DNA from: Octopus sinensis
Taxonomy: Eukaryota
DNA: 64,000 nt
Reading direction: 5' to 3'
Assembly (NCBI RefSeq): GCF_006345805.1
Contig: NW_021834219.1
Location: 1-64,000, forward strand
The notes under the pieces were generated by a model. It worked only from the letters and a program-made list of their open reading frames with translations, was not told the origin of the DNA and did no database searches. Positions 1,050-59,921 of the stretch are shown piece by piece. The stretch's first letter is position 1; each line of letters starts with the position of its first letter. Made by a program: the position numbers and the translations under genes.

Positions 1050-1698
1050 TTTTCTTTATTGGCAACACAGGGCTGCACACAGATGGGACAATTTACAAAG
1101 TAGAGCTTTTCTTTTGGGGGATGAAAAAAACAAAAAACAAAAAATAAAAGAAACAAAAAAAAGGTGGCGTAGGTTTTCGATCAAAAGGGATCGTAAAAGG
1201 GAAAAAAAAGAACAAAAAATAAAAATAAAAAAAAAAAAAAAAAGAGAAAAGGAAAGGAACAAAGAAAAAAGAAATGAAAAAAGAAGAAAACGGGAAAAAA
1301 GGGGAAGAGGAAAAAAAAACGATCAATAGGGATCGTGTATCACAGTGTTATGATGTATGGTGTAAAGGGGAGTCAAGTTAGGTTTATCCGTGGGAAGAAA
1401 GCCTACGAAAAAGACCGCGTAAACCTCGGTCAATATTATAATATGTTACCACATTTGTTTGCAAGTGGGTAACCCGCTTTTCAGTTTCTGGGTTCATAGG
1501 ATTATGCTCAAGGTGGCTCCGTCATTCATACGTGCCATTCTTGCTACATTCACCCATCTTTTTTTAAAACATTCGCTAGACAAACTTGCCTCTCTACTCT
1601 CACTTTCCTTTCAAGTGGTACTTGAAGAAGTGATGAGAGATTGACCAGAGAGGAAAGTGTTTGTCTCCAATCCTTTCAGACGCGTCCACCAAATACAT
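1050..1698 (-). mobile_element. L1/Tx1-type LINE, 3' end (ORF2 C-terminus plus 3' UTR)
   Basis: Minus strand translates, with frameshifts, to CIWWTRLKGLETNTFLSGQSLI...KYHLK...KKRWVNVARMARMNDGATLSIIL*. The IW..R motif is typical of L1/Tx1 ORF2 ends. A T-rich UTR ends TGTCCCATCTGTGTGCAGCCCTGTGTTGCCAATAAAGAAA. Confidence 0.65.
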
Positions 1699-1704
1699 AC
1701 ATAC

Positions 1705-1830
1705 ATATGGTTCTGGGTTCAATCCCACTGTACGAAATCTTGGGCAGGTATTTTCTGCTATAGTCTCGTGTCCACCAAAGCCTTGTGAGTGAATTTGGTA
1801 AACGGAAACTGTAACAAGCCCGATATATAT
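1705..1830 (+). mobile_element. SINE family A, 5' part
   Basis: CATATGGTTCTGGGTTCAATCCCACTG...CCAAAGCCTTGTGAGTGAATTTGGTAAACGGAAACTG. Confidence 0.8.
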
Positions 1831-1835
1831 ACATA

Positions 1836-2320
1836 GACTGATAAGGGAGACAGCCTCCCTATCGCAAGTAAGAGCGTCAGATTATCGATGATTTCCGATT
1901 GAATTAATCCTCATCATTGACACTCCGCTGCCTAGAATTAAGCTGAAGTCGCTCTGTCAGTTTATAGAAAATACCATAGGAATATGTGGCTGTTTCAGTA
2001 TAGTGCTTTGCCTGTGGCTAAGAATTGCTTTGACTCCTATTTCTAGCAATGCCGTGGCTGACTTGAACCATTAGTCACTTTAGTTACGATTGTACTTGTG
2101 TCTTTCAGTTTTTAAATTGCAACTAACCATCTTAATAATTAATAATTTTCACTTTACCATTTTGCTGTAGTCAGTCAAGAACTGCTTTGCCTTCGGTTAA
2201 AGTTGTTTTGACTATTATTTCTAACAATGGTGGTGCATAGTTGTACCCTATATCGCTTTAGTGACGATTGCACTTGTGCCTTTTGGGTTTTAACTTGCAA
2301 CTAGCCACCTTAATAATTTA
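1836..2320 (-). mobile_element. PLE-like terminal repeat remnant with degenerate HHR-like motif
   Basis: Homologous in reverse to ~27295-27485. Minus strand 1876-1921 reads GTCA-ATGATGA-GGATT..AATCG-GAAA-TCATCGATA-ATC-TGAC. Confidence 0.45.
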
Positions 2321-4214
2321 TACACACACACAGGCACACAAATATATATATATGGATGTGTGTGTGTATATATTCACACACATACACATGATAGTAACCG
2401 ACAGAAGTATTACAGGAAAAAGAAACAGGGAAAGAGAAGGGAGGGAATGTGATTTTGTATGCTATTGAGTGTTAGTTAATGTCAATATATACGCTTATAT
2501 GTATACATGTGTATATGACTGCGTGTCTGAGAAATTGAATCTTTGTATGGGTATGCGTATGTGTATTTATATATGCATATGAGTGGGAGAGCGGACGTGT
2601 TTGATTACCATCACGTGTACACAGTAGAGGATCTAATATCTATATAATCTGTGCATGTGTAAATATGTACAGAAATTTTGTATTTGTAACAGCGTGTGAA
2701 AGTATGTTTTTTATTGATTGATATCTTTGCTAAAAGATCAAAATGAGAAAATAGTGAAAGAGGAAAATATGTTGAACACATAAAGATGTTTACTGGTATT
2801 GTTGTTTGCAAATAGTATATGTATTTGTTTTAAATATGGGTTTAAATATGGGTTTAAAGATAGATAGATAGATAGATAGATAGATAGATAGATAGATAGA
2901 TAGATAGATAGATAGATAGATAGATAGATAGATAGATAGAAAGAAAGATTTATAGATAGATAGAAAGAAAGATTTATAGATAGATAGACAGGAATGTAGG
3001 TAGAGTGATAGATATGTAGGTCGGTAGATAGATAATAAGCGTATATATAGATAGAAAACAGATAATTGTACAACTGACAGAAATATTTATACACACATAC
3101 ACATGCAGTTATATAAGTCTTGGTTGTATATATGTGTGCGTGTATATATATATATATATATATATATATATATACACTCATACATACCCAAATATATATA
3201 TAAATGTATAAACAGTGAACTAAACCCCTCTTATTCTATATATATATATATATATATATATATATATATTGTGTGTGTGTGTGTGTGTGTGTGTGTGTGT
3301 GTGTGTGTGTGTGTAATTGTTAGAGAGGACAACAAACATTAAGACAATGCAATCATCTCAAGTCATATACAATATTATTGCTGGAAAAAAATTCAGTCTT
3401 ACACCTGTTTCTGGGATATCCATGAGTATGGGATATCAGAGACAAATGGGGAAAAATAGAGAAAATGAGAATGTTATATACTAATTAAATGCCGACATAG
3501 AGGAAGTGAGTAAAAGGATAAGGAGATGGAAAGTAAGAAGAAAAATGAACCATAAAAGTTTGTCGTCCTTTTTAATAATTAATATATCCGCTGCATTGGA
3601 AATCTGCTATGGCTCCATCACTACCGTCTCGGCTATAACCTTGGAGCCTTAGTAATCCGTTACAGCACTTACCTAGCGTACCTAATCGTTTAGATCACTT
3701 GTGAACTAAACTTCCATACTTTCTATACATATATACATACACACACATTGCTCCGAGAATGGTCATGTTTTCTAAGTTTAACTAATTTAATTCATCTTCA
3801 TATTGGATATTATTTCAAGGTGTTACTGATGCTGGGTTTAGAGAATAGAGTCATTTTAAGAAATAATTCCATTTTAAATTTATAATGAATTTCTAAGTCA
3901 AAAATGATAGCGCATTTTATGTTTCTGGCTTTAACATACTCCGAAAACAAACAAGTTCGAACACGGCCAAAGAGCTGAAAAAATATTACTGATCATACAC
4001 TAATAAATGAAGGAAAATGAAAAAGACAATACCACAGGAATGACGTTCTAACAGCGAATAACATGAGGCAACATAAAAACAACGCCTTTTTTTTAAAATG
4101 AGGTTACAGGTTATTTATTTAAGAGGTATTTTGTTGGTACTTTTTGCAGCTCGAGTTACTGCAAATTAGCTCTTCAGTTACTTTATATAATTAGCTGGAA
4201 AGGGATCTGGGCTG

Positions 4215-57678: not shown

Positions 57679-57756
57679 CACACAAACACATACATACATA
57701 CATACATACATACATACATACATACATACATACATACATATATATATATATGTATG

Positions 57757-57803
57757 TTAGGGTTAGGGTTAGGGTTAGGGTTAGGGTTAGGTTAGGGTTA
57801 GGG
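57757..57803 (+). repeat. Interstitial telomeric repeat (TTAGGG) x ~8
   Basis: Direct reading; one unit is the variant TTAGG. Confidence 0.9.
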
Positions 57804-58089
57804 TATTTAGTCCGATTATTTCTATGTCCCCGCGCATGATATATCCTTAAGATGACCGTTGTATGTATGTATGTATGTATGTATGTATGTAGTATGTATG
57901 TATGTACGTATGTATGTATGTATGTATATATATATATATATATATGTATGTATATATATATATATATATATTTATATATATATAATATATATATTTATAT
58001 ATTTATATATATGTGTATGTAAGCATATGTATGTATCTATGTATAATGTACTGATCCGTGATAGAAAATTAAACAAAAAGAGTACTCCA

Positions 58090-59400
58090 TCTGGTGAGAG
58101 ATAAATATTACTTATTTAAAGGTCGTAATGTATGTATTAAAGCGCTACTAATAGTTTTATATGTTGAGGAAACTGAAATATATTCTTCAGGCGCAAACAA
58201 CATATCATAACGAAGTAAAGAAATTGAGGAAATAATAGAGGAAACATGAAAGAATTGAGAAGGCAGCATATAGAAAATGCAGGCAGTAAACAACGGATAA
58301 ACGAAAAATAAAAACTAAACTGTAAAAAATATAAAGTAAAAATGTAATAGAGCTATCCTCCTTAGATCTTAAATGATAAGGCTGGAAAGATAACTAGGCA
58401 TTCAGGAATAGGCGGAATTTTCCAATTCTCACAAAATATATTTATATATATGCATGCAACGACTGAAAATTTCTGACCTGGAGTTCAATAGAGAATGAGG
58501 GATTTTATCTCTGAACAGGATCTACGCTCTTTCAGCCCAACAAAGTCCACATTTATTTCATCCATTCACATTTGGTATGGATTTCTCAATTACTTTCCAT
58601 TGGTGTTTCGTTATCTTTCAAAGTCCATACGTGGATAACCAACTTAGTAGCTTTACTTTTGTCCCTGTTTCGGAAAGAGGTTATGCGATTGGCATAGCGA
58701 TTTTTAAATTCTCCTTCACATAATTCAAAATAGGTATTTTTATCAATTGCATTTAGGGTTGCCTCATACATGATAGATTTAGTCATACATTGTTATTCAA
58801 GGGGACAGGATCCTGGGTCGCGACAGTTGCAACTGTAATTCAGGCTCTTAATATTGACCACATGAAATGATACTCTTCGTATTGGGGCAGTATATATATG
58901 ATAATTTCACAGATCACCTATTAAATATTTTCCACTATCTGTGAGTGGCTGGAAAGTGTTTGTCTTTGAGAGACATGATCTTTTACCTATGTTAGTTTTT
59001 ATATTAAGCAAAAATTAAGAGGCGAACCAAATAATTTTCGTTCACCTATTTTTAGGTTTTGTACTACTTTATATTTGATGCTATTAGATCTATTATTAAT
59101 ATTTTGATTAATATTAGAGAGATCATATATTAAATTATATTTTCAGCCACTAGTGGCTAGAGCCTTGTTATAATAGGGGGTAATTTTGTCGAAAACTTCT
59201 TTGGAAGAAGAGAGGTTAAACGCTCTGTTACTAATATTTGCTATCAGGATTCTAAATATTACAGGAGGGTGACAAGACTGTTTCTGTATACATGCGAGTT
59301 TCCAATTAGGCTTATGGTAATGTTTAAATCTAGGGCAGCAGCTAAACAATCAACTATAGAAAGATTAGTTGCTACTGTAATTTTAAGTCCTAATTGATTA
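58090..59400 (-). mobile_element. Decayed PLE of a third type (CNC..CP linker plus GIY-YIG-like endonuclease)
   Basis: QSCHPPVIFRILIANISNRAFNLSSSKEVFDKITPYYNKALATSG, KIIWF, CNCRDPGSCPLNN, IMYEATL...YFELCEGEFKNRY..SF..TKL..HVWTLK. HHR-like motif downstream at 58142-58194. Confidence 0.75.
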
Positions 59401-59690
59401 AAGCTAGAAAGGATACAGATGACCCGTTAGCAATTGAAACCTAAAGGCGACGACTCACGACTCAAAATGTCACGAAAAGCATTAACTCAATAATTTGACG
59501 AAAGAGAGGAAGCGAGAAAGCTCCTTACCTTAGTGAGACAAACTCACGCAAAACGTAGCAGATATATCCATTTCACGCGATTTCGAACTTTGAATCATTG
59601 TCGCATAACTCGCCTCGTCAAATCATGAGTAAAACCGTTCAAGGCGTGCGCTAATTTGAAACGGTAAAGGTGTATAGTATAAATAATACA

Positions 59691-59921
59691 TATTTCTTTA
59701 CTGCGCACAAGGGGCTAAACGCAGAAGGGACAAACAAGGACAAAGGGATTAAGTTGATTATATCGACCTCAGTGCGTAACTGGTACTTATATAATCCACC
59801 CCGAAAGGATGAAAGGCAAAGTCGACTTCGGCGGAATTTGAACTCAGAACGTAAAGACAGACGAAATACCGCTAAGCATTTCGCCCGGTGTACTAACGTT
59901 TTTGCCTGCTCGCCGACTTGC
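59691..59921 (-). mobile_element. SINE family C, full length with 17 bp TSD
   Basis: TSD ATAGTATAAATAATACA at 59674-59690 and 59922-59938. tRNA-like head (GAGTTCAAATTCC); core GTCGACTTTGCCTTTCATCCTTTCGGGGT; LINE-like tail. Confidence 0.9.

Follow-up and report, generated by a model that had tools for sequence, protein, structure and literature searches.

The subject of this study is a stretch of 64,000 nt from Octopus sinensis (contig NW_021834219.1, positions 1 to 64,000 of the forward strand), here called the window, and a 3' tail of about 40 nt which recurs in it at the ends of several retroelements. These are the end of a putative long interspersed element (LINE), two units that carry only the first open reading frame (ORF1) of a LINE and lie one within the other, and a short interspersed element (SINE). 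Mammalian L1 copies any polyadenylated RNA. Which mode came first in the L1 group, such relaxed recognition or a strict recognition of the 3' tail, is still debated, so far on evidence from plants and algae (PMC3747384). The elements concerned, together with a sibling of the SINE, are the following:

1050..1698, minus strand: 5'-truncated LINE-like fragment, with the C-terminus of a broken ORF (about 1694-1494), a U-rich 3' untranslated region (UTR) and the shared tail
23455..26900, minus strand: outer ORF1-only element, 1689 nt without its insertion (26900-25554 plus 23796-23455)
23797..25543, plus strand: inner ORF1-only element of about 1747 nt, lying antisense within the outer element
59691..59921, minus strand: SINE of 231 nt, with a tRNA-like head (assigned by eye), a central domain and the shared tail
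34700..34925, minus strand: sibling SINE with the same head and core (70% identity over 168 nt) and another tail, an internal control for tail exchange

A common tail at the 3' ends of four elements

The four tails quoted in the original prediction, which was made from the letters of the window, are all present letter for letter and measure 39-40 nt each. Their positions and predicted hairpins are:

1051..1090, minus strand: tail copy 1 (LINE-like fragment), hairpin GCAGC-CCTGT-GTTGC at 1076-1062, pair probabilities 0.96-0.99
23458..23497, minus strand: tail copy 2 (outer element), hairpin TAGGC-CTTGT-GCCTG at 23482-23468, pair probabilities 0.66-0.95
25505..25543, plus strand: tail copy 3 (inner element), hairpin TAGCC-GTTGT-GGGTA at 25520-25534, one G.G mismatch
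59693..59732, minus strand: tail copy 4 (SINE), hairpin AGCCC-CTTGT-GCGCA at 59716-59702, two mismatches

Pairwise identity of the tails is 76-80% in all six pairs. A strict tail pattern matched three times in the window as against 0.03 matches expected, and none of 100 shuffles reached three. The tail of the outer element ends in AAAGAAC and was therefore missed by the strict pattern and caught by a looser scan. In leave-one-out searches with nhmmer, profiles of three tails recovered the omitted fourth in every case (4/4, E 1.5e-6 to 1.8e-5), the next match in the window having an E of 2.6 or worse. The tails of the SINE and of the LINE-like fragment agree at 78% over 41 columns, with leave-one-out E values of 4.6e-6 and 1.8e-5. 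Fainter likeness extends about 20 nt upstream of the tail in all four copies; for the pair of ORF1-only elements it reaches about 130 nt. The tail pattern had no match in collections of viral, metagenome and prokaryote genomes, which shows only that host DNA of this kind is absent there.

Target-site duplications (TSDs) bound three of the four tail-bearing elements: 11 nt for the inner element, 10 nt for the outer one and 17 nt for the SINE. In each of these three the duplication begins 0-3 nt past AAAGAA; the inner, outer and SINE copies therefore inserted without a poly(A) run. No poly(A) follows the tail in any of the four copies. The three TSDs are unrelated in sequence, and four insertion sites are a small sample for a target preference of the Tx1 kind. 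The tail is one homologous 40-nt module that ends four elements of three designs without poly(A). This agrees with what the original prediction observed: the tails are shared, no copy has a long poly(A), and the position at the element 3' end is established by TSD for three of the four copies within the window.

Two nested ORF1-only elements

The outer element is flanked by the duplication AGCTACCAAG at 26901-26910 and 23445-23454. Its ORF1 starts at 26813 and is broken by stops and frameshifts. The inner element, flanked by ATCAGTTGCAA at 23786-23796 and 25543-25553, has a broken ORF1 at 23918-25351. Along 508 nt of coding sequence the two agree at 61% of positions. Both TSD-flanked units (1689 and 1747 nt) consist of an ORF1 and the LINE tail, with no second ORF (ORF2). 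That both would prove to be ORF1-only was anticipated correctly. The inner stop is followed by just a 192-nt 3' UTR to the end of the element, which leaves no room for ORF2.

An intact protein of 404 aa from Octopus bimaculoides, P0002, spans the inner element, with residue 1 at 23918 and residue 404 at 25348. This intact relative stops where the inner ORF stops. Its shared C-terminus, together with the two TSD-flanked copies, which inserted independently, suggests that the ORF1-only elements are a family which may have transposed in this form, and not a one-off deletion. Parts of the nested elements were found in 20 of the 24 sequencing runs listed, no RNA run being among those listed.

The 3' UTRs of both ORF1-only elements also contain a GC-rich block of 40 nt, which precedes the tail by about 90 nt (23560-23605, minus strand; 25405-25445, plus strand). 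It is possibly a second structured signal.

The ORF1 protein family

A profile of the two homologous ORF1 pieces found 75 proteins (P0001-P0075) at E ≤0.001. Twenty of these were looked up; 13 are named, and all 13 come from Octopus (seven from O. bimaculoides, four from O. vulgaris and two from O. sinensis), which by itself points to an octopus source for the window. Within Octopus the family is highly diverse, splitting into about 73 clusters at 50% identity. Three proteins were dropped: P0001 and P0042 as repeat proteins without relation to the family, and P0011 because its gene model is fused to a WD40 gene. With tblastn the 75 proteins gave 168 segments, every one of them in the nested pair and none on the LINE-like fragment. 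An ORF1-ORF2 fusion was not found among the 75 matches and is not used as evidence.

The zf-CCHC zinc knuckle is recognised in both ORF1s (E 2.8e-4 in the outer and 3.1e-3 in the inner element), and no Pfam family beyond it was found in the ORF1 relatives. In the structure model of P0002 (mean pLDDT 68.2, pTM 0.47) the knuckle follows two compact alpha/beta domains. Foldseek returned nothing for this model at E 0.001; its top rows are proteins with tandem RNA recognition motifs (RRMs), at a best E of 1.4e-3. A wide fold search gave generic ferredoxin-like, ACT and RRM matches (best Z 8.1), and L1 ORF1p does not occur in its listing, which excludes nothing. Searching PDB sequences with the ORF1 profile retrieved zinc knuckles only, word-index protein searches gave no significant match among 3, 4 and 4 candidates, and the Atlas gave no match at or above 0.9, its weak leads being PRE_C2HC and DUF4780 clusters that scored 0.77. 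As modelled, the protein is a type I ORF1 with two predicted RRMs and one CCHC knuckle. Type I ORF1 has been tied to Tx1 in non-mammalian animals (PMC5203782).

Transposase_22 was found in none of the 18 or 36 ORF1 relatives scanned, which have a CCHC knuckle instead, and mammalian HAL1 proper was rejected as there is no Transposase_22 ORF1. Six metagenome loci from the P0002 search were likewise discarded; they match a low-complexity linker, and none is significant against the ORF1 profile.

The SINE and its siblings

The SINE is enclosed by the duplication TGTATTATTTATACTAT at 59922-59938 and 59674-59690. Words resembling A and B boxes are visible by eye, while ARAGORN called 0 genes and Rfam gave no tRNA match. 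Of the predicted tRNA SINE with a tail, the SINE, the tail and the 17-nt TSD are secure, whereas the tRNA head is assigned by eye only. The element has no run of four T, and AGTAAA stands in place of AATAAA. Its core is a putative Deu/Nin domain.

Three other pieces of the window share the head or core of the SINE, and their 3' sequences diverge right past the core. Sibling pieces lie at 34925-34700 (minus strand), 31700-31800 (plus strand), 4910-4760 (minus strand) and 29083-29034 (minus strand), with at least two other 3' ends. Since siblings with the same head or core carry other tails, the tail of the SINE is an exchangeable module. Exchangeable SINE tails have been reported for molluscs (PMC11481361; PMC4824008).

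The LINE-like fragment

The putative coding part of the fragment comprises about 66 codons up to a stop at 1496-1494, after which follows a U-rich 3' UTR of 443 nt. The frame reads IWWTRLKGL at its start and FKKRWVNVARM...LSIIL ahead of the stop, its middle apparently being out of frame. The fragment lies between short TATG and TATC repeats and ends against a TATC/TCTG microsatellite; no TSD was found for it. With no TSD and microsatellites at its flanks, its terminus is therefore inferred from the tail alone. A possible mark of the L1/Tx1 group is the pattern W-x-x-R ... F-x-x-R-W near the stop, an arrangement of the ends of L1/Tx1 ORF2 proteins; it is a lead rather than a test. For the clade of the fragment, the L1/Tx1 group is the probable assignment.

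A predicted hairpin in the tail

Registered on a common loop, SYUGU, with a C-G closing pair, the four copies of the tail align without gaps. The predicted shape is a 5-bp stem with the SYUGU loop, flanked by UGUCCC-N-UCU and RUAAAGAA. In this register, which was chosen after inspection, 17 of 20 cells are paired (85%), and four of the five pairs are altered on both sides (n=4 sequences). When the partner is slid by 1-3 columns, pairing falls to 20-50%. Covariation of the stem amounts to 0.867, a value equally high in 1 of 500 shuffles; further controls gave 65 of 20000 with within-column shuffling and 13 of 20000 with pooled shuffling. Folded singly, the copies of the fragment and of the outer element do form the stem (0.96-0.99 and 0.66-0.95). 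All four tails thus likely fit one small covarying hairpin. In zebrafish L2 tails (PMC4176376) and in the maize/sorghum L1 tail (PMC3747384), too, the stem is variable and the loop and flank are conserved.

Global minimum-energy folding had also been tried as a test for a common structure. It gave no shared fold and was set aside for the loop-registered count.

Other elements in the window

A long LINE without the shared tail lies at 16590-20347 (minus strand). It has a reverse transcriptase (RT; Pfam RVT_1, E 2.2e-31) and, at its C-terminus, the look of a restriction-like endonuclease; we take it to be probably of the R4/Dong type. Another LINE, at 60204-63834 (plus strand), encodes an endonuclease and an RT. 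Its upstream frames contain a Myb/SANT-like domain (E 1.5e-4) and CCCH-like motifs repeated twice, and form an unusual ORF1 region. Remnants of Penelope-like GIY-YIG endonucleases are found at 39956-40699 (minus strand, weak Pfam match) and 12834-13175 (plus strand, by eye), and a remnant at 8860-9165 (plus strand) resembles by eye the restriction-like endonuclease C-terminus of another LINE clade. Long imperfect palindromes resembling miniature inverted-repeat transposable elements occur at 26902-27176, 27737-27882, 27914-28015 and 59973-60122. The outer element and the SINE each start at or within about 50 nt of such a palindrome, and a target preference may possibly account for this nearness.

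A putative tail-recognition system

It is likely by this tail that the RTs of one LINE lineage recognise their templates. The reading which we favour, and consider rather more probable than its negation, is that a family of LINEs, probably of the L1/Tx1 group, runs a system of stringent tail recognition which serves LINE, half-LINEs and SINE. The RTs of this lineage would reverse-transcribe their own RNA and, acting in trans, the RNA of the ORF1-only half-LINEs and of the SINE. The protein of ORF2 (ORF2p) would bind the stem, the loop and the conserved flanks of the tail hairpin, as suggested by L2, where ORF2p has been established experimentally to read the stem by shape and the loop by sequence (PMC4176376). 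It would nick the target with staggered cuts, giving duplications of 10-17 nt, and priming would take place at the AAAGAA end of the tail. The half-LINEs may have arisen via internal deletion of ORF2, with ORF1 and the last 40-130 nt retained, and the SINE may have acquired its tail by template switching.

The original prediction had ascribed the system to one L1/Tx1-type RT, which is probably too strong. Several related RTs are likelier than one, because the stems differ at four of five pairs, the tails are 76-80% alike, and O. vulgaris has 80 L1-Tx1 families, 13 of them recently active (PMC13282606). Of the idea of three tiers joined by a conserved tail signal, the shared terminal tail without poly(A), the two ORF1-only elements and a SINE with an exchangeable tail are supported, to which the present analysis adds a plausible covarying hairpin of the sort read by stringent LINEs; the L1/Tx1 label is probable and the single RT doubtful.

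Several points weigh against the proposed system. The evidence on the tail comes from one 64-kb window with four copies, and so does the hairpin, whose register was picked post hoc; the inner and SINE copies on their own do not form the stem (pair probability 0.0), and minimum-energy folding gives each of the four a different structure (z -1.2 to -2.1). None of the tail-bearing elements yielded an RT or an endonuclease. Protein, Pfam-type, Atlas (none at or above 0.9) and PDB (0) searches gave no match to the C-terminus of the LINE-like fragment, whose coding part matches none of 78 collected proteins. Because these searches were empty and no longer copy was obtained, the clade of the fragment stays inferred; the predicted L1/Tx1 LINE at 1050 is a tail-bearing LINE-like piece, but truncated and frameshifted, with its coding nature and clade unconfirmed by any database match. 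Moreover, a look-alike of the poly(A) signal AATAAA lies within the tail in three of the four copies, and type I ORF1 occurs in Jockey-superfamily clades as well and hence is not clade-diagnostic (PMC5203782).

The last point bears on the partner of the system, which might be a LINE of another clade with type I ORF1 (Nimb/I, L2, CR1-Zenon or the Jockey group), the stringent three-tier arrangement being otherwise the same. The partners reported for mollusc SINEs are CR1, CR1-Zenon, L2 and Nimb (PMC11481361), an ORF1 with RRMs and a CCHC knuckle would suit these clades as well, and the weak Atlas leads at 0.77 go to PRE_C2HC and DUF4780. However, the tails lack the terminal microsatellite repeat typical of L2, CR1 and RTE, and the U-rich 3' UTR ends in AATAAA. 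The W-x-x-R ... F-x-x-R-W pattern ahead of the fragment stop may also speak for L1/Tx1, and we regard a partner of another clade as rather unlikely.

It is less probable still that the tail was kept by descent as a signal for RNA 3'-end processing (AAUAAA with an upstream UG-rich element), while the RT was relaxed and the SINE hitch-hiked. Such a signal predicts poly(A) ahead of the TSD, yet all three TSD-bounded copies are without it; the stems covary; and the SINE has AGTAAA and no four-T run, as expected of an RNA polymerase III transcript which needs no such signal. AATAAA does stand at the extreme end of three of the four copies, and two of the four hairpins are imperfect, as this explanation would allow. 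Least probable, and in our view very doubtful, is that the 1050-1698 fragment comes from the 3' terminus of a third family of non-autonomous elements, with its autonomous partner outside the window. A coding part without database match, the missing TSD and only about 50 plausible codons would fit such an origin, but the coding part matches no ORF1-family protein, the complete C-terminus of P0002 included, and the 3' UTR is longer than the ORF1-only UTRs and resembles them over roughly its last 60 nt only.

In its widest form the favoured reading would be that an L1/Tx1-group lineage of Octopus chooses its templates through a 3' hairpin, needs no poly(A) for priming and feeds both a large and diverse radiation of half-LINEs and a major SINE family, to which we give slightly less than an even chance. 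If true, stringent tail sharing would be seen for the first time in the L1/Tx1 group of an animal. An ancestral stringent recognition in the L1 group would become directly testable in animals, with natural stem variants at hand and 13 recently active L1-Tx1 families in O. vulgaris, a likely driver would be named for one SINE class dominating octopus genomes, and coding and non-coding parasites would be seen to compete for the same enzyme via one signal. Were the partner of the L2, Nimb or CR1-like kind, the case would be a tidy but ordinary SINE/LINE partnership; a partner from any of the other type I ORF1 clades named above would make it an ordinary SINE/LINE pair plus derivatives like Ag-Sponge or HeT-A.

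Relation to known systems

tRNA-Deu SINEs and L1-Tx1 LINEs are abundant in Octopus, with 60.9 Mb and 56.3 Mb, respectively, in O. vulgaris (PMC13282606; PMC8967140). In the available part of PMC13282606 the words "tail", "partner" and "non-autonomous" occur 0 times, and its consensus library may already hold these families. The octopus tail is undescribed in the literature searched, which included the accessible parts of PMC4758252, PMC5804259, PMC8967140, PMC9115989, PMC3531059 and PMC11203168. Nor was a description of the three-tier combination found for an animal L1/Tx1 system, though the 1994 octopus SINE paper, the HAL1 paper, Repbase, Dfam, SINEBase and the Zenodo library may hold the families. 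The RepeatMasker table names only foreign Tx1 and HAL1 references.

SINE/LINE pairs with shared tails are common, 58 pairs having been compiled (PMC3747384). Those of the L1 clade are LINE1-1_ZM of maize/sorghum with ZmSINE2/ZmSINE3 and L1-1_CR of Chlamydomonas with SINEX-3_CR (PMC3747384). As in octopus, a LINE and a tRNA SINE share their 3' end, in those pairs the last 45-80 nt, and like the hairpin predicted in octopus theirs has a variable, compensating stem with a conserved loop and flank; unlike in octopus, the hosts are a plant or an alga, poly(A) or a run of T closes the elements, and the available text describes no tier with ORF1 only, while the clade of the octopus LINE is a probable assignment. 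In the available text of that paper "octopus" occurs 0 times, and the five occurrences of "Tx1" lie outside the pair table. In the literature searched, strict tail recognition in the L1/Tx1 group was found described in plants and algae only. The crocodilian SINEU/Tx1-Mar system resembles the octopus case in that animal LINEs of the Tx1 clade presumably mobilise a SINE, but there the link is made via shared target preference and 5' heads, SINEU has poly(A), and no LINE with a matching 3' part was found (PMC4494074). Zebrafish ZfL2-1/ZfL2-2 and eel UnaL2/UnaSINE have, like the fold predicted for the octopus tails, a short 3' stem-loop, whose stem counts as shape and whose loop counts as sequence (PMC4176376); they differ in belonging to the L2 clade, in their terminal short repeats and in having been tested experimentally, the octopus case being known from sequence alone.

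Non-autonomous LINEs with ORF1 only are known as HAL1, HeT-A and Ag-Sponge (PMC5786205; PMC5753468). Like the nested elements, these several independent families combine an ORF1 with a LINE 3' end and lack ORF2. HAL1 derives from mammalian L1, HeT-A from Jockey and Ag-Sponge from CR1, whereas the octopus ORF1 has tandem RRMs and a single knuckle and is known only from Octopus among the named matches; unlike in those three, the same tail is also found on a SINE. Shared SINE/LINE tails and ORF1-only LINEs are thus already known, and it is their combination, with a predicted hairpin tail on three designs, that is new relative to the literature searched.

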